34,488 bases of DNA from a virus (Duplodnaviria; Caudoviricetes): the IMG/VR virus record IMGVR_UViG_3300042140_000289, positions 1-34,488 of that record; one strand, given 5' to 3'. Shown here piece after piece: positions 131-33,382 of this stretch. Numbering within the stretch: the stretch's first letter is position 1; every line of letters begins with the position of its first letter. The position numbers and the translations under genes were made by a program. Under the pieces are notes generated by a model. It saw nothing but the letters and a program-made list of their open reading frames with translations. It was not told the DNA's origin and ran no database searches.

Positions 131-159
131 TCTCATTATAAGCCATGTAATTTTTGCGA
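131..159 (-). promoter_or_regulatory. Conserved phage promoter motif upstream of tRNA-Leu
   Basis: Minus strand TCGCA-AAAAT-TACA-TGGCT-TATAATGAGA, with the same spacing as 9 other copies. Confidence 0.8.
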
Positions 160-185
160 AAAAAAAAATAATCTTTGTAGGGAGA

Positions 186-228
186 AACGCAGAAGCCGTG
201 TACAGTTTTTGTACACGACTTCCGCGTT
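186..228 (-). terminator. Long hairpin after cassette gene (terminator or processing site)
   Basis: Minus strand AACGCGGAAGTCGTGTACA-AAAAC-TGTACACGGCTTCTGCGTT. The mismatches become G-U pairs only on the minus strand. Related to the hairpins at 30.9-33.2 kb. Confidence 0.6.
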
Positions 229-238
229 CGTTCCCTCG

Positions 239-544
239 TCAGTTGACGTTGATGTTCTTCGGACGGACGATCGTGTTGAACGCCTTCGAAGACCACACGT
301 GGTGCTGCTCGTAGGCCACGATGAGCAGGATCCCGACGATGTTTCCAGCGACGACGACCAGCGTGTCGCGGCTGATCTGGTTCGTGTTTCGCTTCTGCGA
401 GTCACGAGCTTCGATCAGCCGCTCCAGCTGGTTGACGTAGTTGTTGTACTCGTCGGAACCCGGTTCGGTCATGTCCATGTAGTTCAGCACTCGTTGAATG
501 GCATCCTCGAGCGATGTTGACAATTCGTCCCGCTTTCGGAACAT
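239..544 (-). CDS. Small GC-rich cassette protein with one hydrophobic segment (101 aa)
   Basis: RBS AAGGAGG, GC-rich third positions, hydrophobic stretch LVVVAGNIVGILLIVAY; flanked by the promoter motif and a hairpin. Confidence 0.85.
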   Translation of the reverse strand: MFRKRDELSTSLEDAIQRVLNYMDMTEPGSDEYNNYVNQLERLIEARDSQKRNTNQISRDTLVVVAGNIVGILLIVAYEQHHVWSSKAFNTIVRPKNINVN

Positions 545-562
545 AATTCCTCCTTGTTAGGG

Positions 563-591
563 TCTCATTATAAGCCTTGTATTAACTGCGA
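563..591 (-). promoter_or_regulatory. Conserved phage promoter motif
   Basis: TCGCA-GTTAA-TACA-AGGCT-TATAATGAGA; overlaps the stop codon of the upstream gene. Confidence 0.8.
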
Positions 592-974
592 TCCTCAATA
601 GGATTGTTTAAAACTTTAAAGCAAATATGAGACTTTAATCTAAGGATTTCTGGACTATCATCCAGCTCCAAAGAATATAGCATTTCTCCAGTTTCGTTTT
701 GGCTAACCATCATAGTCCCGTCGTACTTTAAATCAGATTTTACGTACGATCGAGACGAAATTAAAAGAAAAACTCCAAGCGCAACCGTAATTAAAAGGCC
801 TAAAACCACGACAAAAATTGACCATGATAGATCAAACGCTGTTGACACGCCCAAATATAAAGCCGCCGCTCCAGGTAAAACAACCATAACAAGCGCTTTT
901 AGAAAATCATAGAAACTATTTGAAATTAAAATTAAAGGTTGACTTTTCTTTTTAAAACGCAAAGGCTCAGTCAC
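582..974 (-). CDS. Holin-like membrane protein (Dp-1-holin-like paralogue)
   Basis: Two TM segments. ISNSFYDFLKALVMVVLP resembles LSNKQYDFAKKAIQIWFP of 1328..1672. Has a soluble C-terminal extension. Confidence 0.6.
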   Translation of the reverse strand: MTEPLRFKKKSQPLILISNSFYDFLKALVMVVLPGAAALYLGVSTAFDLSWSIFVVVLGLLITVALGVFLLISSRSYVKSDLKYDGTMMVSQNETGEMLYSLELDDSPEILRLKSHICFKVLNNPIEDRS

Positions 975-1326
975 TTTTTCTCCTGTTAGTTCTTAAATCT
1001 AAAGTTGGTGAAAATTTGTGCCCCGACCTTAGCGGAAGTTCGCTTAATTCTTTCATAATCAAATCCGCTGTTCCGTTCCCGCCCAAAGTTTTATACGGCG
1101 TGTAAATATTAGCCAGTAAAACTTCATATTCTTCTCGGTTTACCCATCCTTGTGAAATGTAAACGTCACAAATATCATGAAAGACTTTGTGTGTGATACC
1201 GAGCAGTAAAATAAGCTCAGCCTCTTTTTCGCTCTGTTTCTGCGAAAAGAACTTCCAAAATCCGGCCGAAGCTCCTACGGTATAGACGCCAGTAAAAATT
1301 AAAGCCGCCCATTGATCCCATTCCAT
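967..1326 (-). CDS. Lysis-module membrane protein (119 aa)
   Basis: Start re-called at ATG 1326 after RBS GGAGG. N-terminal TM helix and YTPYKTLGGNG motif typical of holin-adjacent phage proteins. Confidence 0.7.
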   Translation of the reverse strand: MEWDQWAALIFTGVYTVGASAGFWKFFSQKQSEKEAELILLLGITHKVFHDICDVYISQGWVNREEYEVLLANIYTPYKTLGGNGTADLIMKELSELPLRSGHKFSPTLDLRTNRRKSD

Positions 1327-1327
1327 T

Positions 1328-1672
1328 TCAACCTCCAGTAAATGGCGGCTGCTTCGGCCAAAAATCAGAGTTGTTATCTTTAATTGTTTTGTTATAAATA
1401 TCAAACAAATCTGAGTCGTAAGAAGAACTATTAGGGTCAACTAAATTATCTTCTACATTTGGCTCTGGATTGGAACTATTATAATTTTTAGAACTAATGC
1501 CAAGAACAACGCCAGAAAACGTAGCGAAAGCGGCTAAAGTTCCAACTACTTTTTCAGGCGATGGAAGGCCCCATAACTGCCCAATTGTTAAGTAAAATGT
1601 ACAAAAGGCTGGAAACCAAATTTGAATTGCTTTCTTTGCAAAATCATACTGTTTATTAGATAAGTTAAACAT
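1328..1672 (-). CDS. Holin (Dp-1-like)
   Basis: Two TM helices in an LSNKxYD...P...Y...WGLP...LGISS pattern; lies downstream of the tail genes. Confidence 0.7.
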   Translation of the reverse strand: MFNLSNKQYDFAKKAIQIWFPAFCTFYLTIGQLWGLPSPEKVVGTLAAFATFSGVVLGISSKNYNSSNPEPNVEDNLVDPNSSSYDSDLFDIYNKTIKDNNSDFWPKQPPFTGG

Positions 1673-1679
1673 TTTACTC

Positions 1680-2780
1680 CTAAATCTCGTCCGTCAAAGT
1701 TGGATAAGAGCTTTCACCAGTTTCGTCCTCAATTTCAACGTGTTCAATAACTCGCATTCGTGCAGAAGTGTTATAGTCGCCACGAACAGATACAATATCG
1801 CCAACATTATAATCTGTTCGATACTTGTAAGTCTGAGACGAAGAACTAATTTTAGCGTTTGTAATTGCCACGTTGCTTTGCTGCGCAAGGGCCTCGTAGC
1901 CGCGAATTAAAAGTTTGTTAATTACTGCAGTTAAATCGGCTCCTTGCGGATAGGCACTAAACTGATTGTCAATATCTGATGCATCAACAATCATAGTTCG
2001 TCTATCATACCCAGCTTCTGCTGAGTTGATGAACTGGTCAACCCATCGACCAAGAATATAAGCGCAGTTTTTTAATTTTTTATTACTCCAAAGGTAATCG
2101 GCAGAATCGATGTCTCCGTATTCATAAGAAAATGCAACCGAAGAGCTTTTGTCTTCCCCATCATGAATAAAAATACTTAACTCATTGTTCCAGTAATTTG
2201 GGCGAACTGTTCTAATACCAAGGTTGTCAATTTCCAAAAGAGTAATGACTCCAGAATAGACTTCACCCTTTTTAATTACTCTTTCTTCGTATACTCCGTC
2301 TTTTTCAACTCCATTAACAGCTCTTACGTTTAAAAATGAGTCTTTTGGATCCCAAAGAAAATCAGTTCGAATATGATTGTTAATCAGTGTAGTTGCTTGC
2401 CACCAACTATAGTTTGCAGCCATCAAATATTCTGGAATTACCATTTCCCGGTCTACCCAGTCCTGGTTTGCGCCAACAATTCGGTTCTCTAAAAAAGTTT
2501 CAAAGCTTCTGCCAGTAATTTTGATAGTTGCCTCGGAGCCTTTTTGTTGATTAATTTCATGGTTTTCAACAATCATAACTTCTGTGCTTTCGGCGTGCGA
2601 AATTAAAGTACCAATTGGAAGAGTCTTTTGAATATCAGTATCAATTTTTGCAATTAATTCAAACTCACAAAAGTCTCGGTACCTTTCAATCCACATCAAA
2701 CTGTCCCAGCCGTTTACAAGTTCTCCGCTTAGAATATCCAATTCTACACCGGAGCATTTTGGAAACTTAAACAAGTCCAT
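1680..2780 (-). CDS. Minor tail/baseplate hub protein (Tal-like; ReqiPepy6 gp37-like)
   Basis: Second gene after the tape measure. Contains SLMWIERY..EFEL and YKYRTDYNVGDIV motifs. Confidence 0.75.
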   Translation of the reverse strand: MDLFKFPKCSGVELDILSGELVNGWDSLMWIERYRDFCEFELIAKIDTDIQKTLPIGTLISHAESTEVMIVENHEINQQKGSEATIKITGRSFETFLENRIVGANQDWVDREMVIPEYLMAANYSWWQATTLINNHIRTDFLWDPKDSFLNVRAVNGVEKDGVYEERVIKKGEVYSGVITLLEIDNLGIRTVRPNYWNNELSIFIHDGEDKSSSVAFSYEYGDIDSADYLWSNKKLKNCAYILGRWVDQFINSAEAGYDRRTMIVDASDIDNQFSAYPQGADLTAVINKLLIRGYEALAQQSNVAITNAKISSSSQTYKYRTDYNVGDIVSVRGDYNTSARMRVIEHVEIEDETGESSYPTLTDEI

Positions 2781-9511: not shown

Positions 9512-10480
9512 TTAAAAAGAATCTGAAAGCTGATAGGTAAAAGTATCTAAGTATCTAACGTTTGCGTCTCTAATTTCGTAAGTTCCGTTGGCACTGGTAA
9601 CAACAATTAAGTTATCGCTAGAAGTAGACGCAGTCCAAGTACCGTCTCCATTGTCAACAACTTTAATGTTCGGAGCGTCTTTAACATCTTTTGTATCACT
9701 AAGAATGTACACATCATCTTCAGTAAAAATTGCATTTGCATCTTTAATTAAAAATTCACCTTCATCTACAAACATAATAAACCCTGGATATTTTGTTTCT
9801 GCTGTCCAGGTTCCGTTTCCATTGTCAGTAATTTTAATTCTAAACCAATTGTTAATATAAGAAACTAAATCGTTCATAGAAAGTAAAGATGCATTGGCGT
9901 AGTTTGTTCCGTAAAGAATGGCCTCAATTTCTTCCAAAAGCCAAGGATCTAACTCAGAAGTGTTAATCACCATATAAGCAGAAGGCCTATACCCTTCAAT
10001 GTACTCTGGTGTAGTAAATAGTTCCCACTCGAACTCAACTAAAGACGGGTCATCACTAGCGGTTGCGTAAGTTTTTTCGCTGGGAATAGCAGTAATGTTA
10101 TAAACAATATGAATTTTATATCCAGCTTCACTGCCTTCAAAATCGTTACCAATTTTTGTTCTATAACATAATGCAAATGTTTTTTGCGGTTGTTCGTTTA
10201 AATGAACACCGCTTCGAAGTTCTTCTGCGCCGTTAATTTCATCCAATTCATTTGGATATGTTACCGCAGAAAGAGTCGCTGTAAAAGTTCCAAGTTTTAC
10301 AACGTCATTAATCTTTGACCCGTCTAAAAAGACTGGCTCAGCAGATCGGTCAAGGCTTTCATTGATAGAGGTTAAACCATTCCAAGGAACTGCCGAACCA
10401 TCTGGTAAGTACAGAACGCCGTTGTCTAAACCAGACTCATAATACCTATCCCCAACCGCATCCCAAGTAATTTTAGGCAT
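9512..10480 (-). CDS. Major-tail-protein paralogue with C-terminal repeats
   Basis: Aligns along ~200 aa with 11059..11928 (TWD..G.R.YE.G.D.GVLY; WNGL; F.L.YRTK.GND; YK.H.VY; PSEK.Y.T). Two DNGxGTWTA repeats follow. Confidence 0.8.
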   Translation of the reverse strand: MPKITWDAVGDRYYESGLDNGVLYLPDGSAVPWNGLTSINESLDRSAEPVFLDGSKINDVVKLGTFTATLSAVTYPNELDEINGAEELRSGVHLNEQPQKTFALCYRTKIGNDFEGSEAGYKIHIVYNITAIPSEKTYATASDDPSLVEFEWELFTTPEYIEGYRPSAYMVINTSELDPWLLEEIEAILYGTNYANASLLSMNDLVSYINNWFRIKITDNGNGTWTAETKYPGFIMFVDEGEFLIKDANAIFTEDDVYILSDTKDVKDAPNIKVVDNGDGTWTASTSSDNLIVVTSANGTYEIRDANVRYLDTFTYQLSDSF

Positions 10481-11058: not shown

Positions 11059-11928
11059 TCAGGTGAAGTCGTAGAACCAATCGTCATCGACATTAGCCGG
11101 GAAGTAGTATCCGTTGTTGGGACGAGCCGTAACAACAGTATCCTCGGTAATGACGACAGCGCCAGCAGCCTGTGCGACGTTGTTGATGTAGTAAGTAACA
11201 CCGGTAACCGACGGGATCGTAATCGTGTCAGTAGCCGAGTTATACGACGGCTCAGTCGGGGTGACCTGCACCGCGGTTCCGCTGAAGATGGAAATCACCG
11301 CATCAGGAAGGGGCAGAGACGGATCAGTCCCAGCCGTTCCGTAGAGGAAGTTTTCAAGAATCTCTAAATCACCGGAATCAACCATGGTGGAGTCAACCGT
11401 TAAGATAGAAGTAGGCCTAGCGTCAGTAACCGCAACCGGGACCGTCGTTAACTCCCAGCTAAACGTAATAGCCTCGGGCGAATCGTTGATCGTCGTGTAG
11501 GCCTTCTCCGAAGGGCTCGCGCTACAGCCGTAAACCAGGTGAAGTTTGTAGCCATAATCATCGCCATCGATGTCGTTGCCAAGTTTGGTCCTGTAGGAAA
11601 GACCAAACGTACGACGAGCCTGCTGCCCAATGGTTAATCCAGGCGCGGGAACGCCAAGACCATCAAAAGGAGCGAACTCATCCGGGTAAGTAAAGGCCTC
11701 AATAGTCCCACCGAACTCCTCGGCCGAGAAGAGGTTCAGGTACTTAACGTTATCCGCATACTGAGCGTTAGGCTCCGCGCCCGAAGGGGTCTCCGTAACG
11801 GTAACAAGACCGTTCCAAGCAACTCCATCAGTGTAAGCGCCCGAAGAATCGGGGATGTAGAGAACACCCCGGTCCACACCGGTCTCATAGATTCGCTCAC
11901 CGGCACCGTCCCAAGTAAGAACTGCCAT
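11059..11928 (-). CDS. Major tail (tube) protein
   Basis: Position after the tail terminator; GC-rich codons; tube-type sequence plus a C-terminal Ig-like domain. Confidence 0.88.
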   Translation of the reverse strand: MAVLTWDGAGERIYETGVDRGVLYIPDSSGAYTDGVAWNGLVTVTETPSGAEPNAQYADNVKYLNLFSAEEFGGTIEAFTYPDEFAPFDGLGVPAPGLTIGQQARRTFGLSYRTKLGNDIDGDDYGYKLHLVYGCSASPSEKAYTTINDSPEAITFSWELTTVPVAVTDARPTSILTVDSTMVDSGDLEILENFLYGTAGTDPSLPLPDAVISIFSGTAVQVTPTEPSYNSATDTITIPSVTGVTYYINNVAQAAGAVVITEDTVVTARPNNGYYFPANVDDDWFYDFT

Positions 11929-12572: not shown

Positions 12573-14528
12573 TCACTCCCCGACAAATGTCCAGGAATCG
12601 TTCTCGCTGCTCGGGAAGTAGTAGCCGCTTGCCGGAACTGCGTTCACAACAAACGTCTCACCCTCAGCAACCGAGTAAGGCGACCCAGCCGCGTTCATCG
12701 TCGAATCATCAGAGGCGTCCTGGTAGACGACACCCGTCTGGTTCGTGATGGTAATGTCGGAGCCGTCGAAAGCAGGCTCAGCCGGGGTAACCGCAACGAG
12801 AGAAGCAGCAACCTTCTTGACAACCATCGCCGACTTCAACTTGGTAAGCGCCCCAGAAACACGGGTCTCGATCAGGTACTTGTACTGGTTGTAATCGATG
12901 TCGAAATCGTCAAACATGCTGACGTTTCCGCCCTTATCGGCGCCAATAATGTAATCGACCGGGTTAACGAGAATGGCGACGATGTCGTCCTCTTCCTCCA
13001 TAACCTCAACCGGAACAATCTCAGCGACCCGAAGCTCGGTAGCAACCTCGTCAAGGGTCTTGTAGATACGACGACCGACCGTGTCCTTCAGAAGCAGGAA
13101 CTTGGCAATGTAGGTCTCGGTAGTGTACATGGTCGGAAGACCAGTGCCCTTCCAGTACTGGCGGTTCATCACAATGGCGTCAATAATCTCCTGCACCGAG
13201 GAGTTAGCATCATCGATGTTGACGTTAACGACAGTGGTGTAGAGCTCATGATCCTTTGCAATCGGGCGAATATTCTGCTCGTTGATCTTATCGTCGTGAG
13301 CAACGTCACGACCATCACCAATCAGAATAGCCCGGGCCAGCTCCTCATCGAGCATCAGCCGCATCTCACCCTTAAGCCAGGTGACAACGTCAAAGTCGGT
13401 GATATCGACCATGTCATCGCGATCCAGCTTCTGCTTCTTGTAGATGGTCGTCGGAGTCGTAACCCGCTTGGAGACGCCAAAGAACTCTTCCTTCTTCAGA
13501 GTACCAGTAATGTACCCCTTCGCCCTGGCCTCTTCCGGAGTGAGGTCAGCCGACATCGTCTTAACTCGGCTAAACGGGCTCTTCCGGGTCGCCGAAAGGA
13601 GCTTGTTAACCCACTCAGTCCGACGAGTGAACCACTCCGGAGTCGTGGCAATGTTCTGGGCATCCGGGAAAAGAAGATCGATGTCGGTGATACCATGCTG
13701 TAAAGCAAAGGCATCAACGGCGTCCTTAAGGGAGCCGAGCTTGGTAGCGTCGGAAACAATACCCTCAATATCGGCGTGAGAAAGCGTCCGAGGGGCCTCG
13801 GGCTTGGACTCATCGCCCTGCTCAAAAACGTTGCGGGTCATTTTATCACCTTCCTTGTCGGTGTCATTGGTAGTAACATTGTCCTGAGCCATTTCGCCGG
13901 TCTCAGTATTATTGTCTTCAGCAGAGAGAAGTGCTTCACCAATCATATAATGAAGAACCTCTTTCTGCTTATCGGTCATTGTCTCATAAACGTCTTCGAT
14001 GGTCTCTTCGTCATCGGTATTGTCTTCCGGCTCATCATCTTTAGCATCAGAAGGAGCATCTCCCTCAGCGTGCTGAAGCTCAAGACCAGTGTAAATAATA
14101 ACTTCGTCCTCTAAGGTGAACTCGTCCCCATCAGAGTGCTTAATAGTAACATTCTCAATAAGTGCGCCAGGATTTGCCCCGGAAAGAACAAGGCTAACCT
14201 CTCGAATAGCTCCGTGTAAAACCCGTCCAGTCCGCTCAATTAAGTCATTTGCCCAAATGGACAACATGTTAATGTCGCCATGCTCTAATAAATCTTTTGC
14301 GTGGCTAGCTTTACCAGAAGAATTAAAGAAACCATATGCGTAAACGCCATCTGGACGAGCTTCTAAAATTGCGTGACCAAGAACATTCTCTGGATCGTTG
14401 TGCCCGTGCTGCCAAACCAGCGGAACCTTTGCCTTATCCTGATGCTTAAAGGCGTCAGGCATAATGGTTCGCCCGTCGGTACACTTAAGCCCCGCCTTTG
14501 TGGCGTAGCCGCTAAAATCTGCTTCCAT
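12573..14528 (-). CDS. Prohead protease-major capsid fusion protein
   Basis: N-terminal HK97-type protease (PLVWQH, LSIWA, EVSLVLSGANPGA), an acidic linker, a capsid domain, and a C-terminal Ig-like domain. Has an internal in-frame RBS+ATG at 13841. Confidence 0.9.
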   Translation of the reverse strand: MEADFSGYATKAGLKCTDGRTIMPDAFKHQDKAKVPLVWQHGHNDPENVLGHAILEARPDGVYAYGFFNSSGKASHAKDLLEHGDINMLSIWANDLIERTGRVLHGAIREVSLVLSGANPGALIENVTIKHSDGDEFTLEDEVIIYTGLELQHAEGDAPSDAKDDEPEDNTDDEETIEDVYETMTDKQKEVLHYMIGEALLSAEDNNTETGEMAQDNVTTNDTDKEGDKMTRNVFEQGDESKPEAPRTLSHADIEGIVSDATKLGSLKDAVDAFALQHGITDIDLLFPDAQNIATTPEWFTRRTEWVNKLLSATRKSPFSRVKTMSADLTPEEARAKGYITGTLKKEEFFGVSKRVTTPTTIYKKQKLDRDDMVDITDFDVVTWLKGEMRLMLDEELARAILIGDGRDVAHDDKINEQNIRPIAKDHELYTTVVNVNIDDANSSVQEIIDAIVMNRQYWKGTGLPTMYTTETYIAKFLLLKDTVGRRIYKTLDEVATELRVAEIVPVEVMEEEDDIVAILVNPVDYIIGADKGGNVSMFDDFDIDYNQYKYLIETRVSGALTKLKSAMVVKKVAASLVAVTPAEPAFDGSDITITNQTGVVYQDASDDSTMNAAGSPYSVAEGETFVVNAVPASGYYFPSSENDSWTFVGE

Positions 14529-17762: not shown

Positions 17763-18335
17763 TTAAACCAAATTCCTATACTGCTTTTCTAACTTAGCTC
17801 GTTTGACTGATTTCTCAAGCGCTTTGTCGGAGAGAGCCGAAGCCGGAGATCGACCAGTCCTCTTAAATGCAATATCGTCAAGAGCAGCATTGACCTGGTT
17901 TGTCATCTGCTTTTTAAACTGGTCTTTTCCGATTTGAATAGCGACATCGCCAAGAAACTTTGCTGATTCTGTAGCGAATCGCTTACCTCTAGATACGCTC
18001 TCCGTTTGCGACTTTGCGCTAAGCTCTTTGAACTGCTGCTCCAGCCGCATTCTTTCAACAGCATCTTTAAGTTGTTTATCACTAAGGCTTTTAACACTTG
18101 GTTTTGGCGGAGGCTTAGCCCAAGCTGGTTTTCCAGACTTTGCGGATTTCTTTTTTTCTTTTCGAACTCCCCATTTCATGCCTTTGACCCCGGCATGATT
18201 CAGAAAGTTTTTTGTAAAATCGACCGCTTGAGCGAGTTCATCTTCGGTGTCTGGAAGAAGTTCAAAGGAAATAATTTTTCCCATGCTATCGTATCTTGCT
18301 TTTACTTCAATTTCAACGCTTTCGGGATCTAACAT
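17763..18335 (-). CDS. Basic protein with HxGxKGMKWG motif (putative internal virion protein)
   Basis: Acidic N-terminus, then FLNHAGVKGMKWGVRK and a Lys/Arg-rich remainder. Confidence 0.75.
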   Translation of the reverse strand: MLDPESVEIEVKARYDSMGKIISFELLPDTEDELAQAVDFTKNFLNHAGVKGMKWGVRKEKKKSAKSGKPAWAKPPPKPSVKSLSDKQLKDAVERMRLEQQFKELSAKSQTESVSRGKRFATESAKFLGDVAIQIGKDQFKKQMTNQVNAALDDIAFKRTGRSPASALSDKALEKSVKRAKLEKQYRNLV

Positions 18336-19104
18336 TTCCTTCCACCACCTTCCATGTTAACCCAGTATCTGAAACGTCGTATTTAAACTGCAGAGTCTTT
18401 TTGCTTCGGCTACTTCCGACCATTTTCTCTGAGTTTTTATTTAAAACTTGGGTGGCCATTGCTGACATTTCATCGTTATACTTTTTTAAAAGTTTTGGGT
18501 CGCCAGAAATGTTTTTGTTTTTGTATTGCGGCTTCTCATTGATTAATTTAATGTTTGCATTAATTTCTTTGCCGGATTTATTATAGATTTTTCTAATAGT
18601 TTTACTTTTTGTGGCTTTTTTTTCCCATTTTTTGTCAGCTTTTCTTACTTTCCTTCTAGCTGGGTTTGTCTTTTTAATTTGGCGGCGTTCTTTTCTAACG
18701 CCCCATTTCATACCTTTAACACCAGCATGTTCAAGAAAGTTTAAGCCTTTTTCTTTTAAAGATTCCTCAATATTGCTTTGAGCTAACTCTTGATCGGCCA
18801 ACTCTTGCTTCCTTTTTCGCGCTTTAGCGGCAATAGCTCTAGCTTCCGCCTCGTTCTGCGGAACTGGCTCACCCCAAGCTGCAGCAGTAAGAGCAAACCT
18901 AGTAGGGCGACCTTTTTCGTCTTTTAGCGGTGGATAATTATCCTGGCCATAAAACCTCAAGGCCCAGCTAATCCAACGCTTTTTATCAGACGTGCTCGCT
19001 TTCGAGTAATTTTTGACTCCTGGCTTTAAATTACCACCAAAAGCTTTTCTACCAGCAGCTGTTAATCCACCTTTTGGGTTTTTTAAAGGTTTTTTATCAC
19101 TCAT
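18313..19104 (-). CDS. Basic two-domain protein with HxGxKGMKWG motif
   Basis: N-terminal KNPKGGLTAAGRK domain (DUF6321-like, from memory), then FLEHAGVKGMKWGVRK. Confidence 0.75.
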   Translation of the reverse strand: MSDKKPLKNPKGGLTAAGRKAFGGNLKPGVKNYSKASTSDKKRWISWALRFYGQDNYPPLKDEKGRPTRFALTAAAWGEPVPQNEAEARAIAAKARKRKQELADQELAQSNIEESLKEKGLNFLEHAGVKGMKWGVRKERRQIKKTNPARRKVRKADKKWEKKATKSKTIRKIYNKSGKEINANIKLINEKPQYKNKNISGDPKLLKKYNDEMSAMATQVLNKNSEKMVGSSRSKKTLQFKYDVSDTGLTWKVVEGNVRSRKR

Positions 19105-25040: not shown

Positions 25041-25115
25041 TCTCCCCCGGGGCCAAAAAATGTGGTCCGGCGATGAAGGGAGGGGGGTAATTTTAAAGAC
25101 CCCTCCCCCCCTTCA
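25041..25115. other. Candidate cos/packaging site
   Basis: G-run/C-run inverted repeat at 25074-25115, GC-rich 9-mer CGCCGGACC (minus strand, 25064-25072) and a CCCCGGGG palindrome, located in the intergenic region just ahead of the lysin/terS genes. Confidence 0.45.
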
Positions 25116-25128: not shown

Positions 25129-25374
25129 TTAATAATCAACTTCTTTTGAAACTTTTCTATAAAGTCCAGAAATATTTTCTTCAACAATCTCATCAATTGC
25201 TAATTCATTAGCGATATTCTGATCAACTTCTGATAACTCATTAGACGTGAAGGTGAGCCTGGCCAGGAGGGAAGAGGTGTTGTACCCTGCCGCCACATCA
25301 TAAGCAAACCATTCTTTAAAGTTTTCAAAAGGATCGAACGGATTGTCGACAGTTGTTAACATGGAACGTTTCAT
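25129..25374 (-). CDS. Conserved-looking acidic hypothetical protein downstream of the polymerase
   Basis: MLTTVDNPFDPF..F.EW..YD...GYNT motif. ATG 25374 has better RBS spacing than GTG 25380. Confidence 0.75.
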   Translation of the reverse strand: MKRSMLTTVDNPFDPFENFKEWFAYDVAAGYNTSSLLARLTFTSNELSEVDQNIANELAIDEIVEENISGLYRKVSKEVDY

Positions 25375-25386: not shown

Positions 25387-28065
25387 CTACTCTCCACCTT
25401 CAACAGCCAAGTCTAATGTTGACAGTGAGACGCCAAGCTGTTGAGCTACCTCAGCTCTTGTGTAGCCTAGAGCTAACATAGACTCAGCTCGCTTAGTCTT
25501 TGCTGATGTCATCTTAACTTGAGTTCTTGGTGTTGCAAGTTCTCTAACAACATCCATGTCTGCATGTCTAAGTATCTCAGTAAGTTTGTGATTGCTGATA
25601 GCACCAGCTTGAATAGCTTCCCATTCTTTTGGTGTTAACTTAATGTCTTGCTTCTTAGCGCCTGTTCTATTCCTAGCTTCGTTTAAGGCCTGGGCCTTAA
25701 GTCTTTTCTCATGCGCTTTATCTAAATTAGGATTAGCATCTTTCTTAGTCTGAAGAACAGAGTTAGCTAGTAGCTGTGCCTGCCGTTCCCTAGGTGCGTT
25801 TAACTGGGCGAGGGTTAGCTTATTATTTAAACTATCAACTTCATTCTTATAAACCTTGTTAGCTGAAGGTGAGTACTTAACGGAGGGGGTCTTAACTGAC
25901 TCTCTCCTGGCTTCGTTAGCAAGGGCCTTTAGTTTATTAGAATGATCGGCGTAAAGGTTTTCAATCCTTGTGCCGGACGAAAGAGTACGGGCGTCTTTAG
26001 TAATACTAAGCCTCTCTACTTTAGTAGTTAAAGGTTGCCCTGTTCTCCAACTAACTTCACCCGTTGGTTCGAATACCCGTTCACCAGTATCTTTATCAAT
26101 GGGGCCACCTTTAGCCATCGACCTAGCTTTAAACTTAGGGACGCGTTCTTGTCCCTTTGCCCTAGAGATTAAGGTCGAAGCTCCACCAGGAGGACCACCA
26201 TCCGGTTTGGCCTGGTACTTAGCTCTTAGATTCTTAATACCATTATCAATCTCAGATTGTTTATAGTTTAGCCTGTGCTTTTCTGCATCAATAACAACCA
26301 TTGAATGTCTAACGGCGGCGGCAAGCTCTGTGGTTGGGGCGCCTTTAATAGTCATGTCTGTAATTAAATTAGATATTTCGCCCATTTGCCGTTGAGTGTT
26401 ACTCATCACCTTCATTCCAGGGTATTCTTTATATGTAACCCTTGGGTTGAAGTTTTTTAAACCTTCAAGAGCAGCGGTAGACGTTATCTTTCCGTTGTTA
26501 TTAGGAATGACTAATACCGTGTCCCCGTCAAAGTCAGCGCCTGATAATCTTTCTGCAACTTTTGCGTTGATACCCACCGCATCTAAAGCATCACCCAAAA
26601 TGTTTTTTGATTCTTTGTGTTTGTTATTAACTTTTAACTTTGGAATCTCAAAAGTACCGCCATGTGGGAATCTAATCAAAACTACTTCTTCACCGTTTTT
26701 ATAGTTAGGCGCATAGATTTCATTAGGTTTTAAAGACTTAATTGGCATAATCACATGATAAGCCTGTCTTGGTAAGCTAGCGGCAGATAAATGTACGGAT
26801 GCGGCGTCAGTTCCATCAGCAAATTCGTCTAAAAGTTTTTTCCTGACGGCTGGATTTGTCAACTGTTTAATTGTGTTTAAATCATTGACGCGTCTTTCAT
26901 AAGTCATGTCCAGCTGTTCTTTAGCTAACTGTGGAGTTTGTTTTGACAACACCTGAGTCGAGATGGATTTAGACCATTTCCCCCATTGACCCTCTTCTGT
27001 TAGAATGTTCATAACAGAAGTTACTTTTTGTTTGCCATCCTTGGTGGGCTTAGTTATTTGTCTACTAACTGTAGCGCCAAAAGGATTGTCCGGGTCATCT
27101 GAGAGTGGTTTTAAAACGTCTAACTTATTTGTGACTTCTGATTTAGATTTGTTTGTATTAAACACAACGTCAACGCCATCAGGTAAATCATTTTTATAGA
27201 TTGCCATGCCCTTCATATAATGTGAATTACCAACCTGAATTCTTACCTGTGCGTACCTAGAGCCTCCTATAGAAAGATCTTCTACACCAGGTCGCATATA
27301 AATAACTCCGTCAGCTTCTTCTCCGCCGTCTTCTTTATAATTGATAGCAATTCTTTTTGGATTTAAAGGTAGAGGTGGCAGCATACCCAAAATAGTTTTA
27401 CCAGTATCGTCTAAATGAATGTTTGGCGCTTTGATGTTGTAGCGATTTTTACTTACATCGCCAAAGGTTGTTCCCGGAGGAGCCAAGACTTTGAAGTTTG
27501 TTTCAAAATCAGTTCCTAACTGTTGAACTTTAATGTTAGTGTAAACATTATACCCTTCGCTTTTCAGAATTTGAAGGGCAGTATTAAGGCGCTCTTTACT
27601 AACATTCAAATAGTTCTCAACGCCATTACCAACATCAGTCAAACCATTTTTATCAACAAACTCTCTTAAGATTGATGCGGTTTTTAAGGTTAAATCTTCT
27701 TTGTCTTTTAATCCTGGTGCTAAAAGGGTTCTAACTGTAGACTCTGGGATCCCCATTTGTTTCCCAATAGCCACATTACTCATACCTTTGTCTTTAAGTC
27801 TTTGCGCGGTTGCTTGATCGGCTGCTTTTTTTTCAGATTTTGCTAACGACTTTGCCGCCCTTAATTCTGCGGTTGTCATGCCAAAGCCCTGCGCGATTTC
27901 GGTTTCTTTTAATCCATCTTTTTTTAACTTTGCGACGGTATCTAAAAAATCCCTGTTGTTTGACGTGACAAAGGAGTCGCCTCCACTACCCCAAGGGTAC
28001 CTACCTGATTTTCTAATAATACCATAATGAGCAAGATATTCTTCTTCTTCAATTAACACAATCAC
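25387..28065 (-). CDS. Putative single-chain two-barrel RNA polymerase (YonO/cellular RdRP-like) with three HTH motifs
   Basis: Motifs in the expected order: ADGVI, QVR...MKG, LIRFP, LSGADFDGD (26521-26535), MGEISN, HSMVVIDAEK. Two N-terminal HTHs and one C-terminal HTH. Confidence 0.78.
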   Translation of the reverse strand: MIVLIEEEEYLAHYGIIRKSGRYPWGSGGDSFVTSNNRDFLDTVAKLKKDGLKETEIAQGFGMTTAELRAAKSLAKSEKKAADQATAQRLKDKGMSNVAIGKQMGIPESTVRTLLAPGLKDKEDLTLKTASILREFVDKNGLTDVGNGVENYLNVSKERLNTALQILKSEGYNVYTNIKVQQLGTDFETNFKVLAPPGTTFGDVSKNRYNIKAPNIHLDDTGKTILGMLPPLPLNPKRIAINYKEDGGEEADGVIYMRPGVEDLSIGGSRYAQVRIQVGNSHYMKGMAIYKNDLPDGVDVVFNTNKSKSEVTNKLDVLKPLSDDPDNPFGATVSRQITKPTKDGKQKVTSVMNILTEEGQWGKWSKSISTQVLSKQTPQLAKEQLDMTYERRVNDLNTIKQLTNPAVRKKLLDEFADGTDAASVHLSAASLPRQAYHVIMPIKSLKPNEIYAPNYKNGEEVVLIRFPHGGTFEIPKLKVNNKHKESKNILGDALDAVGINAKVAERLSGADFDGDTVLVIPNNNGKITSTAALEGLKNFNPRVTYKEYPGMKVMSNTQRQMGEISNLITDMTIKGAPTTELAAAVRHSMVVIDAEKHRLNYKQSEIDNGIKNLRAKYQAKPDGGPPGGASTLISRAKGQERVPKFKARSMAKGGPIDKDTGERVFEPTGEVSWRTGQPLTTKVERLSITKDARTLSSGTRIENLYADHSNKLKALANEARRESVKTPSVKYSPSANKVYKNEVDSLNNKLTLAQLNAPRERQAQLLANSVLQTKKDANPNLDKAHEKRLKAQALNEARNRTGAKKQDIKLTPKEWEAIQAGAISNHKLTEILRHADMDVVRELATPRTQVKMTSAKTKRAESMLALGYTRAEVAQQLGVSLSTLDLAVEGGE

Positions 28066-28893: not shown

Positions 28894-28934
28894 TTTCCTC
28901 CTTTAAAAAAAATAATGTGAAAAAGTCACATTCC

Positions 28935-28963
28935 TCCTATTATATACGATGTATTTTATAAGA
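28935..28963 (-). promoter_or_regulatory. Variant copy of the phage promoter motif upstream of the nuclease-polymerase operon
   Basis: TCTTA-TAAAA-TACA-TCGTA-TATAATAGGA with exact spacing; followed by hairpin AATGTGA/TCACATT (28914-28932). Confidence 0.6.
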
Positions 28964-29504: not shown

Positions 29505-29704
29505 TTGTGCGTCAAATGTCAAAAATTTTTGCAAAAAACTTTTTTATAATTTGTAGATTATACGCTTACTATACACCCATATAAGTCGTATAATATTAAT
29601 AATAATAAAAAGTTTTTAGGTCGTTTTTCTCAGATATGACGCAGCCCAGAAATTCCTTTATTTTAAAGGGTTTTTAGCGTACTGAGCCACGTCATATCTG
29701 AGAA
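29505..29704. repeat. AT-rich intergenic region with inverted repeats (candidate replication origin)
   Basis: Perfect 15-bp inverted repeat TTCTCAGATATGACG (29627-29641)/(29690-29704) and an imperfect palindrome at ~29534-29617, next to the helicase. Confidence 0.55.
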
Positions 29705-29712: not shown

Positions 29713-30903
29713 CTATACGTCAAAGACCGGGCCAAACTTTTCGTTATCCTGTATAAATTTTCGTTCATTAAAGTTCTTTTTTGAAGTCAAAGATTCTTTG
29801 ATTGCTCGGTCAATCACAGAATTTGACGTAAGTACATAGTAGTATAACTTCTTATAAGGCGTGTCAAGACGGTCAATTCTACCTTGTGCTTGGATAAAGT
29901 TCTTGTAAGAATAGGTCATAGAGTATAAAACCATAGCATTAGTTGTGGTACAGTTCCATCCTTCTGCGCCGGCGGTGTATTGAACTAAATAAACCCAGGA
30001 GTCTTCCACTGGAATTGGGTCTTTTTTATGCCCATTCCATTCATATACATTTATTTCGTCGGAGAGAGTTCTTAGGATATCTAGCTCGTAATTAAAAGTG
30101 TAAAAGATTATAAGTTTTTTATGACACTTTATAAGAGTTCTAATCATATCCAGTCTAGAAGGATCTGTATTAACAATTCTTCGTATCAAACGAAATAGTT
30201 CAGACACGTCTTTTACAGGCCGCTCTTCGTAAACATTCCATCTTTCTTTGTATGCGATATCAAAGAGATGTTTGTCATAGTCAACATCAATATAGTTTAT
30301 AACTCGAACTGTGTTTTTAATAAACGGCATCTCGACTAGGACATCATTACGAAGTACTTCCAAATGTGCTTCATTTAAATACTTTCTAATTTTTGGATAC
30401 TTGGAGAATGGCTCATAAACCACGTGTTTCATTTTGAATTCAGTTGCGTTTTTGTAAAACCCATTAGCGACAAAGACTGGAATATAATCAATCCATGTGT
30501 CACCAGGAGTAGCGCTTAAAAGAACCCAAGAATTGTTTTTGGCAATCTTTAGAAAGCTTTTGGTCCAAGCTCCAGATCCAACTAATCTCTGCTCGTCAAA
30601 GACAAAAAAGTAATCTTTGTAATCTTCAAATTTTTTGATGTTGTTCCACGATTCAATAATGATCGCGCCAGAACAAGTAGCTTCTGGGTCTGGACTAATA
30701 CCAAATCGTGCTGCTTCCCTTTCCCATTCAAGACTATCTCGTTTTTTTGCCGTCGTAATTACGCAAATATCCTTAGGCGCTTCTTTCTCCACGTAATACC
30801 CAAGAACCGTAGCAGATTTACCTGTGCCAACACCTCCCCATAAAATCTTTCCACTCGACAGTTGATTAATAGCAAGTTTTTGATGCTTCATCAATTCAAT
30901 CAT
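29713..30903 (-). CDS. Superfamily-2 (SNF2-like) DNA helicase
   Basis: GVGTGKS, FDEQR, SATP, AEGWN and QAQGRIDR motifs. Confidence 0.9.
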   Translation of the reverse strand: MIELMKHQKLAINQLSSGKILWGGVGTGKSATVLGYYVEKEAPKDICVITTAKKRDSLEWEREAARFGISPDPEATCSGAIIIESWNNIKKFEDYKDYFFVFDEQRLVGSGAWTKSFLKIAKNNSWVLLSATPGDTWIDYIPVFVANGFYKNATEFKMKHVVYEPFSKYPKIRKYLNEAHLEVLRNDVLVEMPFIKNTVRVINYIDVDYDKHLFDIAYKERWNVYEERPVKDVSELFRLIRRIVNTDPSRLDMIRTLIKCHKKLIIFYTFNYELDILRTLSDEINVYEWNGHKKDPIPVEDSWVYLVQYTAGAEGWNCTTTNAMVLYSMTYSYKNFIQAQGRIDRLDTPYKKLYYYVLTSNSVIDRAIKESLTSKKNFNERKFIQDNEKFGPVFDV

Positions 30904-30924
30904 TTAATCCTCCTTTATAAAAGA

Positions 30925-30966
30925 AAAATGAAATGCCCTGTAAGTCAATACAAGGCATCTCATTTT
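30925..30966 (-). terminator. Cassette hairpin
   Basis: Plus strand AAAATGAAATGCCCTGTA..TACAAGGCATCTCATTTT; starts 3 nt after the TGA. Confidence 0.65.
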
Positions 30967-30968
30967 GA

Positions 30969-31262
30969 TCAGATCTTGACAAGGTAGTCAGAAGTGATCT
31001 GCTCTTCGCTGATGTCAAGTCCACCATTGATCTCACACAAGAGGTCGATGATCCGTCCGACATTGTTCCAAGCTTCCATGTCTTTGTCGGTCACGTTAGC
31101 GATACGCAATGGTGTTGACGGGTCCCAAAAGGTTCCGGTCTCTTCCATGTGACGCTTTTGCGCGGCAAAGAACTCAAAAGCCACAAGATTATATCTTAGG
31201 GCAACATCATCCTCAAGGATGAGATGTAGGGGACTTCCCAAAAACGAGTATACAGATTGCAT
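30969..31262 (-). CDS. Cassette protein (97 aa), unknown function
   Basis: RBS AAGGAG; promoter motif upstream, hairpin downstream. Confidence 0.8.
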   Translation of the reverse strand: MQSVYSFLGSPLHLILEDDVALRYNLVAFEFFAAQKRHMEETGTFWDPSTPLRIANVTDKDMEAWNNVGRIIDLLCEINGGLDISEEQITSDYLVKI

Positions 31263-31285
31263 CTATCTCTCCTTATTAGTAGGTC

Positions 31286-31314
31286 TCTCATTATACGCGT
31301 TGTAATTATTGCGA
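31286..31314 (-). promoter_or_regulatory. Conserved phage promoter motif
   Basis: TCGCA-ATAAT-TACA-ACGCG-TATAATGAGA. Confidence 0.8.
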
Positions 31315-31318
31315 GAGA

Positions 31319-31364
31319 AAAAGTGTGATGCCTTGTATTGGGTAATACAAGACACCGCACTTTT
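31319..31364 (-). terminator. Cassette hairpin
   Basis: Minus strand AAAAGTGCGGTGTCTTGTATT-ACCC-AATACAAGGCATCACACTTTT. Confidence 0.65.
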
Positions 31365-31369
31365 GAGTG

Positions 31370-31609
31370 TCACAGTCGATACCCGAGGGGGTGGTTCCTG
31401 ATCGCCTCCACGCGCCGCTCCGACTCCTTCCGGCGGCGGGCGAGCTGGACGCGGTGGGGGATCGACAGCATGTACCGACCCGCTCGGTAGGTACCGTAGC
31501 CGATGATGGCTCCGATAGCTGCGCGAGCGAGCAGGCTCATGCCGTCGTCCGAACCGCTTCCGGACTCGCCGTTGCCGGTCGTGTCGTTGTTGGTCGTGTC
31601 GTTGTTCAT
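31370..31609 (-). CDS. Cassette membrane protein (79 aa)
   Basis: Start re-called at MNNDTT after AAGGAG; hydrophobic core and Arg-rich tail; very GC-rich. Confidence 0.8.
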   Translation of the reverse strand: MNNDTTNNDTTGNGESGSGSDDGMSLLARAAIGAIIGYGTYRAGRYMLSIPHRVQLARRRKESERRVEAIRNHPLGYRL

Positions 31610-31642
31610 GGTCTCTCTCTCCTTTGGTAGGGGTTGTTTAAC

Positions 31643-31671
31643 TCTCATTATACGCTTTGTAATTCTTGCGA
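31643..31671 (-). promoter_or_regulatory. Conserved phage promoter motif
   Basis: TCGCA-AGAAT-TACA-AAGCG-TATAATGAGA. Confidence 0.8.
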
Positions 31672-31676
31672 GGCAA

Positions 31677-31720
31677 AAAGTGAGATGCCTTGTATTGGGT
31701 AATACAAGACACCGCACTTT
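31677..31720 (-). terminator. Cassette hairpin
   Basis: Near-identical to 31319..31364. Confidence 0.65.
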
Positions 31721-31724
31721 GAGA

Positions 31725-31970
31725 TCACTTCAGATTGATCATCATGATTGCGATATCGAAGTCAGCGAATCGCACCGCCTCTTTGATCGTGACCTCTTTC
31801 CTCATAGCAAGAACTCCGTACTCGATCAGGATGGCCATGGTTTCTGGATCGTTGGTGATCTCATCAAACCTGGACTCTCCGTGATAGAACAGGGTTTCTT
31901 TCCAGTATTGAAAGCCTCGATTGTTTTTGCAGGGATTCTTCAGAAGTCGAATGTAACGCATGTAACGCAT
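31725..31970 (-). CDS. Cassette protein (81 aa), unknown function
   Basis: RBS AAGGAG; flanked by the promoter motif and a hairpin. Confidence 0.8.
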   Translation of the reverse strand: MRYMRYIRLLKNPCKNNRGFQYWKETLFYHGESRFDEITNDPETMAILIEYGVLAMRKEVTIKEAVRFADFDIAIMMINLK

Positions 31971-31989
31971 GTTTCTCTCCTTTGGTTGG

Positions 31990-32018
31990 TCTCATTATAC
32001 GCCTTGTAATTGATGCGA
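31990..32018 (-). promoter_or_regulatory. Conserved phage promoter motif
   Basis: TCGCA-TCAAT-TACA-AGGCG-TATAATGAGA. Confidence 0.8.
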
Positions 32019-32022
32019 GAGA

Positions 32023-32068
32023 AAAAACGAAATGCTTTGTACCTCCTAATACATAGCATCTCGCTTTT
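32023..32068 (-). terminator. Cassette hairpin
   Basis: Plus strand CGAAATGCTTTGTA..TACATAGCATCTCG flanked by A/T runs. Confidence 0.6.
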
Positions 32069-32080
32069 GAGGGTAGTACC

Positions 32081-32269
32081 TCAGGTCGGGTTGTTGGTGG
32101 ACGACTCGTCGTCGACGATCATCTCGATCGTCTTCCGCTGCATCCGCTGCACCATCCAGTTCGCGGTGGTCACCGAAGCCACGTAGGCTCCAGCGATCAC
32201 GCCGATCCGGATGGCGAACTGAGCGAACGGCAAGACGCCGGGGATGGTGTCGTTGGTGTCGTTGTCCAT
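32081..32269 (-). CDS. Cassette membrane protein (62 aa)
   Basis: Start re-called at MDNDTNDT after AAGGAGG; one TM-like segment. Confidence 0.8.
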   Translation of the reverse strand: MDNDTNDTIPGVLPFAQFAIRIGVIAGAYVASVTTANWMVQRMQRKTIEMIVDDESSTNNPT

Positions 32270-32296
32270 TTCAGTCCTCCTTGATAGGTTGATAAC

Positions 32297-32325
32297 TCTC
32301 ATTATACGCCCTGTAATTCTTGCGA
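32297..32325 (-). promoter_or_regulatory. Conserved phage promoter motif
   Basis: TCGCA-AGAAT-TACA-GGGCG-TATAATGAGA. Confidence 0.8.
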
Positions 32326-32328
32326 GGC

Positions 32329-32374
32329 AAAAAGTAAGATGCCTTGTAATTAGCTACAAGACACCCTACTTTTT
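32329..32374 (-). terminator. Cassette hairpin
   Basis: Plus strand AAAAAGTAAGATGCCTTGTA..TACAAGACACCCTACTTTTT. Confidence 0.65.
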
Positions 32375-32377
32375 AGA

Positions 32378-32602
32378 TCAGTCCTTCTTCTTGGCCTTCT
32401 TCTTGACCTTCGATTCGACTTCGAGCTTCGTCTTGTCGTTTCGGCGGATCAGTTCTCCGATCTTACGCATGTGCCACCGGACAATCGTGACTCCACCGAT
32501 GCTGCAAAGAGCACCGATAATCACGATTCCAGCGACAGTCACAAGATCTTCTGAAGTGAACGCTTCCTCTTCGTTGACGCTCTGATCGGTTTCGTTGGTC
32601 AT
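32378..32602 (-). CDS. Cassette membrane protein (74 aa)
   Basis: RBS AAGGAGG; acidic N-terminus, TM helix, Lys-rich tail. Confidence 0.8.
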   Translation of the reverse strand: MTNETDQSVNEEEAFTSEDLVTVAGIVIIGALCSIGGVTIVRWHMRKIGELIRRNDKTKLEVESKVKKKAKKKD

Positions 32603-32628
32603 TTATTCCTCCTTGAATTAGGGATTGG

Positions 32629-32657
32629 TCTCATTATAAGCCTTGTAATTTATACGA
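32629..32657 (-). promoter_or_regulatory. Conserved phage promoter motif
   Basis: TCGTA-TAAAT-TACA-AGGCT-TATAATGAGA. Confidence 0.8.
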
Positions 32658-32662
32658 CGAAA

Positions 32663-32703
32663 AGATGAAATGCCTTGTAGGGGGTCTACAAGACATCTCA
32701 TCT
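32663..32703 (-). terminator. Cassette hairpin
   Basis: Plus strand AGATGAAATGCCTTGTAG..CTACAAGACATCTCATCT. Confidence 0.65.
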
Positions 32704-32726
32704 GAGCTTCCCTGAGTCTGGGTGAC

Positions 32727-32873
32727 TCAGCCGAACTTCCTGGCGTAGGCAGCACGGGACTGGCTCGAGCTCAGCGCATCGAGGAGCTTCGCGGCCGCCA
32801 TAACGGCGAACGAGCTCACGATGATGATCTTGACCGGGTCCTTGTCGTACTCTTCCTTCAGTCGGTCCAACAT
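32727..32873 (-). CDS. Cassette protein (48 aa), not in ORF track
   Basis: MLDRLKEEYDKDPVKIIIVSSFAVMAAAKLLDALSSSQSRAAYARKFG; RBS AAGGAGG; GC-rich third positions. Confidence 0.8.
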   Translation of the reverse strand: MLDRLKEEYDKDPVKIIIVSSFAVMAAAKLLDALSSSQSRAAYARKFG

Positions 32874-32898
32874 GTTTCCTCCTTGATTATAGGGTTGG

Positions 32899-32927
32899 TC
32901 TCATTATACGCTTTGTAATTCCTGCGA
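32899..32927 (-). promoter_or_regulatory. Conserved phage promoter motif
   Basis: TCGCA-GGAAT-TACA-AAGCG-TATAATGAGA. Confidence 0.8.
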
Positions 32928-33095
32928 CTACTCGTCCCCCTGAGCCTCAAGATACGCGTAAAAGATCCACTGCTCAAAGTCAGTCAACTTTTCAGCAGGC
33001 TTTACCGACATTTTGAATGCCGTGTTAAGTCCCCACGCCGCTCCAAGAAACGTGCAAAAGAGAAACGTTACCAAATAACCGATGAACTTGAACAT
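32928..33095 (-). CDS. Small membrane protein (55 aa), not in ORF track
   Basis: MFKFIGYLVTFLFCTFLGAAWGLNTAFK...; RBS AGGAGG; lacks its own promoter motif and hairpin. Confidence 0.75.
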   Translation of the reverse strand: MFKFIGYLVTFLFCTFLGAAWGLNTAFKMSVKPAEKLTDFEQWIFYAYLEAQGDE

Positions 33096-33112
33096 TTTAA
33101 TCCTCCTAATTG

Positions 33113-33156
33113 AAAAGTGAAATGCCTTGTATATTCATACAAGACACCTCACTTTT
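33113..33156 (-). terminator. Cassette hairpin
   Basis: Plus strand AAAAGTGAAATGCCTTGTAT..ATACAAGACACCTCACTTTT. Confidence 0.65.
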
Positions 33157-33158
33157 GG

Positions 33159-33335
33159 TCACTCTCCGTTGTGGATGTGCACTTCGACCCAGGGGCCAGA
33201 GCGCGAGATGAAGTAGACGGCCGTGAGCCCCACGAGGCTGACGAACATCACTGCCTTGCGGCGGTTTGCTCGTGCTTCGCGGATCTCTGCGGCGGTCCGC
33301 TTCGACTCCATCTGGTCGATCAGTCGGTTGTACAT
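33159..33335 (-). CDS. Cassette membrane protein (58 aa)
   Basis: Start re-called at MYNRL after AAGGAGG; TM-like AVMFVSLVGLTAVYFI. Confidence 0.8.
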   Translation of the reverse strand: MYNRLIDQMESKRTAAEIREARANRRKAVMFVSLVGLTAVYFISRSGPWVEVHIHNGE

Positions 33336-33353
33336 AATTCCTCCTTGGTTAGG

Positions 33354-33382
33354 TTCCATTATATACCTTGTAATTTCTACGA
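33354..33382 (-). promoter_or_regulatory. Conserved phage promoter motif
   Basis: TCGTA-GAAAT-TACA-AGGTA-TATAATGGAA. Confidence 0.75.

Follow-up and report, generated by a model that had tools for sequence, protein, structure and literature searches.

The window analyzed in this study is an entire viral contig of 34,488 nt (IMG/VR record IMGVR_UViG_3300042140_000289), which carries ten copies of a three-part intergenic element, TCGYA-N5-TACA-N5-TATAAT, and an 892-aa open reading frame (ORF) for a predicted RNA polymerase (RNAP) with helix-turn-helix (HTH) ends, the candidate reader of the element. When both strands of the window were scanned with this pattern at up to two mismatches, ten matches were obtained, all on the minus strand, nine of them exact and one (28939-28963) with a single mismatch; shuffled windows contained 0.17 matches on average, and none of 100 shuffles reached ten. 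An initial annotation of this DNA had placed ten minus-strand copies of identical spacing at these sites, and the scan confirmed the positions, the strand and the spacing; the start positions given there are the low ends of 29-bp copies, which consist of the 25-bp core and four downstream bases (GAGA in 8 of 10). The virion gene block had been described as free of copies and proved to be so, as neither the pattern nor a weight matrix built from 158 sites of other genomes found one between 592 and 28,938. The matrix gave 30.0-39.6 bits to nine copies, 15.7 bits to the mismatched variant and only 5.1 bits to the next best site in the window, and therefore no weak copy is hidden in this interval.

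The copies, hairpins and genes listed in this paragraph all lie on the minus strand, and the copies were located by both pattern and matrix. From the high coordinates downward, the copy at 33354-33382 overlaps the stop codon of the ORF at 33377-33553 and heads the ORF at 33159-33335, and the copy at 32899-32927 heads the ORF at 32727-32873. The next five copies stand directly behind terminator-like hairpins of a single family: 32629-32657 (hairpin 32659-32712, heading ORF 32378-32602), 32297-32325 (hairpin 32326-32380, ORF 32081-32269), 31990-32018 (hairpin 32019-32070, a diverged family member, ORF 31725-31970), 31643-31671 (hairpin 31672-31726, ORF 31370-31609) and 31286-31314 (hairpin 31315-31368, ORF 30969-31262). 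Because five copies adjoin hairpins of this family, the region of 30.9-33.4 kb can be described as an array of cassettes, each composed of a hairpin, the motif, a ribosome-binding site (RBS) and a small gene; both cassettes and hairpins are evidently duplicates of one another. A further hairpin of the family lies at 33105-33162, and another terminator-like hairpin, at 30920-30972, ends the array before the helicase gene. The variant copy (28935-28963), whose first box reads TCTTA, heads an operon encoding a VRR-NUC protein, a Cas4-type exonuclease, the RNAP and an 80-aa ORF. The copy at 563-591 follows just after the tail and holin genes and heads the ORF at 239-544, and the copy at 131-159 lies 35 nt upstream of a tRNA-Leu(UAA) (16-99), with a long hairpin and T-run (160-240) between the ORF at 239-544 and this copy. 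With this arrangement the window shows the trait described for phages of cluster DJ, an intergenic TATAAT repeat before small genes that follow the tail module.

The seven terminator-like hairpins between 30920 and 33162 share TGTCTTGTA-loop-TACAAGGCA, are preceded by A-runs and followed by T-runs, and may act in both directions. Their right arm repeats TACAAGGC, which is also the middle of several motif copies.

Each copy had been thought to lie just upstream of an RBS or the tRNA. This holds for eight of the ten copies, in which the hexamer is followed by a Shine-Dalgarno sequence after 11-22 nt and by a start codon after 22-37 nt, and for the tRNA copy, but not in the same form for the variant, where a short hairpin and T-run (28900-28938) directly behind the copy intervene before the VRR-NUC gene. 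In relatives the copy of the polymerase operon is also often followed directly by a hairpin and T-run (for instance, loci L098, L105, L108, L109 and L143), and it is possible that this structure is an attenuator of the operon or a small RNA. All ten copies have a perfect TATAAT, as had been stated, while the statement that no TTGACA is present at 17 bp needed refinement: a TTGACA-like hexamer 16-18 bp upstream was found in only two copies, those at 31647 and 32301, each with a weak TTGCCT (4-of-6 match) at 18 bp.

The 892-aa ORF (25387-28065; PHROG 4291) is predicted to fold as a single-chain two-barrel RNAP with HTH ends. The model on which this rests was built from an alignment (pLDDT, the per-residue confidence measure, 81.8), since folding of the single sequence was poor (pLDDT 42.7). 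It matches QDE-1 (E 2e-9, Z 17.6), RDR2 (Z 18.1) and the gp64 RNAP of a Thermus phage (Z 13.7), as well as gp62, and its predicted two-barrel core aligns over residues 226-729 with QDE-1, RDR2 and gp64. The DxDGD metal-binding loop is present (DFDGD, residues 511-515, nt 26521-26535), all 119 aligned proteins contain SGADFDGD unchanged, and HTH domains occur at residues 93-120 and 859-884. A search of the PDB with a sequence profile of the protein gave no polymerase match, and the fold searches, which barely covered the parts outside residues 226-729, gave no match resembling sigma region 2. In GenBank EU081845 the orthologue in Lactococcus phage 1706, orf75, is labelled as a structural protein, and the N-terminus of the polymerase is similar to the DUF7211-type tag (LAHYG) carried by proteins of the head module. 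Behind the polymerase gene lies a conserved acidic ORF of 80 aa (25129-25371; PHROG 4303), which is a possible cofactor; a prediction of its complex with the polymerase scored 0.01, which is no answer and counts neither for nor against binding, and an atlas search with this ORF gave no match at 0.9.

The DUF7211-type tag (L-x-H-A-G-V-K-G-M-K-W-G) is clear in two basic ORFs of the head module of the window (E ~1e-10), and a half-match occurs at the start of the polymerase (positions listed for the tag: 17763-18335, 18313-19104 and 12573-14528). Similarly tagged ORFs cluster around terL in relatives. A six-frame scan of RosaAsantewaa, Scap1 and Siphovirus 29632 found the N-terminal tag of the polymerase in short or unusual open frames, and the annotated starts or gene splits of these three records may be off.

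The phage belongs to the lineage of 1706-like phages and clusters AM, AU, AW, BI, CC, DJ and EL, which includes Lactococcus phage 1706 and was described by Koert et al. (bioRxiv 10.1101/842583). Both gene modules typical of the lineage are present in the window, one comprising helicase, HNH, VRR-NUC, exonuclease, HTH/RNAP and a small conserved ORF, and the other HNH, TerL, portal and a fused protease-capsid protein, and its TerL is 60-83% identical to those of 16 relatives. Relatives of the 892-aa ORF were found in 250 phage records, all at less than 60% identity, and 249 of them span at least 80% of its length; the hosts are Arthrobacter, Gordonia, Streptomyces, Lactococcus, Curtobacterium, Rhodococcus, Microbacterium and Faecalibacterium. 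Polymerases of the lineage genomes compared here share 38-56% identity, and the polymerase clusters of the lineage number at least 7,999. A polymerase at 97% identity to that of the window was found on contigs of up to 44 kb, and the window is probably about three quarters of a genome of ~44 kb. Near-identical DNA occurs in freshwater and lake DNA sequencing runs from 11 studies, with no RNA run among those listed.

The element is found throughout this lineage. Our scan covered 15 named records, most of 1706, and loci from IMG/VR and from metagenome-assembled genomes (MAGs). ACA-N5-TATAAT is present in 13 of the 15 named records, and the remaining two, Scap1 and FP_oengus, have variants of the hexamer. 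The core common to the relatives is (T)CGCR-N6-ACA-N5-hexamer-purines (GA), with the CGCR box at -30 to -27 and the purines behind the hexamer as a fourth conserved part. Of the two boxes that had been called invariant, both are indeed fixed upstream of the hexamer, but the middle one reads ACA rather than TACA across the relatives. The spacing is rigid: with 6 and 5 bases between the parts, 149 sites were found on the coding strand and none on the opposite strand, and each shift by one base left 0-1 sites. Shifts by two bases gave 5-18 sites, which were simply taken to be the same sites read again through CGCG or ACAC repeats. As in the window, the series of copies in relatives sets in immediately behind the tail genes, is oriented like the genes and keeps out of the virion block. 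Most relatives examined also have a copy in front of the polymerase operon. Some copies, at 32524 in Vardy, 31102 in CastorTray and 42669 in Poco6, head short tRNA-like structured RNAs with a T-loop-like GGTTCGA and no annotated gene.

Co-occurrence of the motif with the DFDGD gene had been named as a check, and it was observed in contigs picked by the motif. A motif-only scan of about one ninth of the IMG/VR collection yielded 157 loci; among the first 80 loci listed, one locus was taken for each of 37 contigs of at least 38 kb, and 35 of these contigs were examined. The polymerase is encoded on 31 of these 35 viral contigs and on 22 of the 23 that are at least 90% complete. The four contigs that lack it have a completeness of 66-91%, and the capsid-protease of the lineage is found on each of them. 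The 23 near-complete contigs, each of which has at least one copy by construction, contain 148 matches, always on one strand per genome, and no control matches, and the strand of the motif is that of the polymerase gene in 22 of 22. In five bacterial MAGs (16.7 Mb), 14 exact matches and no control matches were found, all on contigs with phage genes of the lineage, and the motif was not found on the host-type contigs of these MAGs. The confinement of the MAG matches to such contigs, together with the contigs picked by the motif first, indicates that the element travels with the phage lineage and not with the hosts.

The adenine at -11 is the key base of a -10 element of the sigma70 family, where it is flipped out by sigma to open the DNA, and its fate across the lineage bears directly on which enzyme reads the element. 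When sites were scored with the -12 and -11 columns ignored, -11 A was kept in 117 of 125 sites from 11 actinobacterial isolates, compared with 21 of 54 sites from 15 clostridial loci (two of which overlap by 1.4 kb, and whose host labels, except for that of FP_oengus, come from MAG bins), with no antisense matches in either set. TATAAT is the commonest hexamer in the actinobacterial isolates (81/125), and the 33 clostridial sites lacking -11 A were found in a set whose hexamers include TTTTAT (13), CTTTAT (7) and TGTTAT (4). All five sites of FP_oengus lack it (four CTTTAT and one TTTTAT), and in 1706, TATAGT occurs in 7 of the 15 gene gaps that were inspected. Judged from these sequences, the hexamer is not maintained as a sigma70 -10 across the lineage. 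Fixed upstream boxes and spacing combined with a drifting -11 position fit a phage-encoded reader that has its own melting apparatus. For comparison, the middle promoters of T4, which are read with the host sigma and a phage activator, require an excellent -10 (PMC2988021).

Taken together, we consider it likely that the ten copies are promoters of early and replication genes that are read by the phage's own polymerase without a host sigma factor. The suggestion that this promoter class is read by a phage factor, plausibly the DFDGD protein, is supported by the co-occurrence, by the rigid spacing across host phyla, by the predicted fold and by the label of the 1706 protein. In the mechanism that we propose, the fused HTH domains would bind the CGCR box (around -29) and the ACA box (around -19), which are one helical turn apart, the AT-rich hexamer would serve as the melting region rather than as a sigma70 -10, and RNA synthesis may start on or close to the conserved purines that follow the hexamer. 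The expectation of a start 6-7 nt behind TATAAT presumes sigma70 geometry, which might not apply here. The enzyme would probably be packaged in the head and then injected, and would transcribe the small-gene cassettes and the tRNA first. Transcription of its own operon would follow from the variant copy and would be held down by the hairpin behind the variant. Since no copy precedes the virion genes, these would be reached either by read-through across cos or through another class of promoter. In its most general form, the proposal would be that the whole lineage injects a cellular-type RNAP of ~100 kDa, which recognizes double-stranded promoters alone through its fused HTHs at two boxes separated by one turn, opens the DNA at an AT-rich hexamer that only mimics a -10 and starts RNA right behind it; this we hold more tentatively, at somewhat under even chances. 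If it is true, host-independent early transcription would help to explain how the lineage ranges over both Actinomycetota and Bacillota, and the lineage would offer a two-barrel transcription system that is minimal, needs no sigma and has a defined promoter of 29 bp.

Several observations weigh against transcription of these genes by the phage polymerase. FP_oengus is temperate and has an integrase, and temperate members need host RNAP to make the first polymerase at induction. YonO, a related type of enzyme, transcribes late and not early genes (PMC5467207). Ten perfect TATAAT hexamers, mostly followed by GAGA, also fit a strong host -10 with its discriminator, and two copies in the window have the 4-of-6 match to a -35 at 18 bp. 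Among relatives, Vardy and Lactococcus phage P118 have no copy directly before VRR-NUC, and P118 has ACA-N5-TATAAT-GA but no CGCR box. By co-occurrence, the polymerase is not distinguished from the rest of the lineage's core genes, for example that of the 80-aa ORF, and the clostridial host labels, FP_oengus excepted, depend on MAG bins. As to packaging, the term structural protein on 1706 orf75 is a GenBank annotation label, and the polymerase itself matches the tag weakly (Pfam E 0.1; single matches of hidden Markov models to head proteins at E ~0.1-10). Finally, folded stems starting at +1 were found in 31 of 211 cases as compared with 11-18 after shuffling, but neighbouring windows are also enriched about twofold. 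The placement of start sites from RNA stems was dropped, because the enrichment was not specific to +1; strict ungapped stems had given little signal.

The geometry of the element also resembles that of T4 middle promoters, in which a perfect -10 is combined with a phage box centred near -30 (PMC2988021), and host RNAP might therefore read the hexamer as a -10 while a phage DNA-binding protein on the CGCR and ACA boxes replaces the -35 contact in the manner of MotA/AsiA. Such an activator could be the 80-aa ORF, the HTH portions of the 892-aa protein or the product of a gene outside the contig, where ~10 kb of the genome probably lies; no MotA or AsiA homologue was found among the 29 ORFs of the window scanned against PHROGs, part of the genome being outside the window. 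The prevalence of TATAAT in the actinobacterial isolates would agree with host RNAP as the reader. T4 middle promoters, however, need their excellent -10 and allow 12 +/- 1 bp between the two parts, whereas the spacing here is invariant, and 33 of 54 clostridial sites have no -11 A. Moreover, a single activator would have to suit the RNAPs of both Actinomycetota and Bacillota, and an intact catalytic polymerase would be left without a promoter. Host RNAP with a phage activator, which had been offered as the alternative from the outset, is thus weakened because relatives have lost -11 A and yet keep the upstream boxes, and we regard it as unlikely.

We give even less credence to two further explanations. 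The copies could be ordinary strong promoters of a host sigma factor, with the upstream boxes as relics of cassette duplication or as contacts of a host factor; the perfect hexamers of the window, two of them with a weak -35, the evident duplication of cassettes and hairpins, and the description of the Vardy motif as holding a sigma70 -10 (PMC9671010) would agree with this. Across host phyla, though, it is the upstream boxes that are kept and the hexamer that drifts, the host-type contigs of the five MAGs yielded no motif, and duplication within a genome cannot explain conservation among genomes whose polymerases are 38-56% identical. The copies could also be used twice, with host RNAP firing those with TATAAT first and the phage polymerase taking over once it is made, or with the HTH protein binding as a regulator. 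The need of temperate members for a host-driven first round, seen in the integrase of FP_oengus, points in this direction, and in Thermus phage P23-45 two enzymes, that of the phage and that of the host, transcribe some middle genes (PMC10770324). But FP_oengus, the temperate member examined, has sites without a usable -10, so that its host-driven start would have to come from elsewhere. Both of these explanations appear to us quite improbable, and to about the same degree.

Parts of this system have been described separately. For Vardy, a Gordonia phage of cluster DJ, a 50-bp MEME motif holding a "sigma70 -10" was reported, with five MEME hits containing TATAAT in the region of genes 39-55 (PMC9671010), and the intergenic motif of cluster DJ, given as 50 bp or 43 bp in this group of papers, was also printed for Mossy (PMC11008172), Conley (PMC10868162) and Fazel (PMC12750149). 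This is very likely the same element, as the eight matches of the window's pattern in Vardy (31,412-38,166) span the region of genes 39-55, a comparison made without the published logo. The published accounts consulted report it for cluster DJ only and interpret it as a sigma70 -10 or as a signal for the start of translation; they do not mention its range over the whole lineage, the absence of -11 A in relatives, a copy in front of the polymerase operon or any connection with the polymerase. The polymerase, in turn, was proposed by Koert et al. (bioRxiv 10.1101/842583), who took the HTH protein to be a YonO-like polymerase; it is of the same family (PHROG 4291) as that of the window and shares its gene module, DxDGD and terminal HTHs. 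The available text of that preprint contains neither "promoter" nor "TATAAT" and assigns no target sequence. Our literature search, outside of which lay Summer et al. 2011 on ReqiPepy6/Poco6, Garneau et al. 2008 on 1706 and unopened supplements, found no paper that joins the motif to the polymerase or takes the motif beyond cluster DJ, and term searches of the available text of Klyczek 2017, Pope 2017, PMC7302621 on Microbacterium phages, Cornuault 2018 and a 2026 Rhodococcus paper found no passage on the motif. The motif (in cluster DJ) and the predicted polymerase are thus known separately, and what appears new within the scope of this search is their link and the lineage-wide range.

Similar enzymes have been tied to promoters of their own in P23-45, where single-chain RNAPs were connected with phage motifs by chromatin immunoprecipitation sequencing and start-site mapping (PMC10770324). 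The virion RNAP gp96 and the non-virion RNAP gp64 of that phage resemble the system described here in being single-chain two-barrel enzymes with a phage-specific motif before early genes, and gp64 is the fold match at Z 13.7. They differ in belonging to another family with other motifs, in the fusion of gp96 to the tape measure protein and in that their promoters were mapped experimentally, whereas the enzyme of the window has its own HTHs. YonO of SPbeta is likewise a single-chain DNA-dependent RNA polymerase of ~100 kDa with a two-barrel core, but it transcribes late genes and its promoter was left undetermined in the available text (PMC5467207), whereas the motif here marks non-virion genes. 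The middle promoters of T4 share a TATAAT-like hexamer and a phage-specific box near -30 in place of the -35 (PMC2988021), but their box has another sequence, and the window has no MotA box and instead a second box around -19, rigid spacing, a hexamer that drifts among relatives and a phage-encoded polymerase. How single-chain two-barrel RNAPs find promoters without sigma is an open question, as the case of YonO illustrates. The polymerase family is now paired with a sharply defined 29-bp candidate site in cultured phages of Gordonia, Arthrobacter, Streptomyces and Lactococcus, and since these have ordinary laboratory hosts, sigma-free promoter recognition is directly testable. If the pairing is true, it would correct the annotations "sigma70 -10" and "HTH DNA-binding protein" in ~250 phage records and might provide an orthogonal polymerase-promoter pair for Gram-positive hosts.

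Some further features of the window and its relatives were observed. A putative 9-nt cos overhang lies at 25064-25072, as judged by its resemblance to the ends of the genomes of cultured relatives. Among the right ends of 12 cultured relatives, 9 have a G/C hairpin immediately in front of the cos overhang whose loop contains a CGYR in the exact register of the first box of the promoter; this CGYR is mostly followed by ACC instead of ACA, and the cut falls one base after the purine position of the promoter. In two further isolates the register is off by one base, and it is not conserved in the window (25064-25100). A cos-adjacent copy acting as a late promoter was considered and rejected, as the window does not share the register seen in 9 of 12 isolates and the hexamer is absent.

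The G+C content at third codon positions is 0.54-0.92 in the genes of the motif cassettes (239-544 and 30969-33553), 0.31-0.38 in the replication genes and most virion genes, and 0.58 in the capsid and major tail genes, which suggests that the codons of the cassette genes and of high-copy genes are tuned to a GC-rich host. An AT-rich non-coding stretch (29520-29700) that separates the helicase gene from the HNH gene contains facing TATAAT hexamers and long A/T runs and is possibly an origin or a host-type promoter. Two related ORFs resembling major tail proteins lie at 9512-10480 and 11059-11928, comparable to genes 25 and 27 of Vardy.

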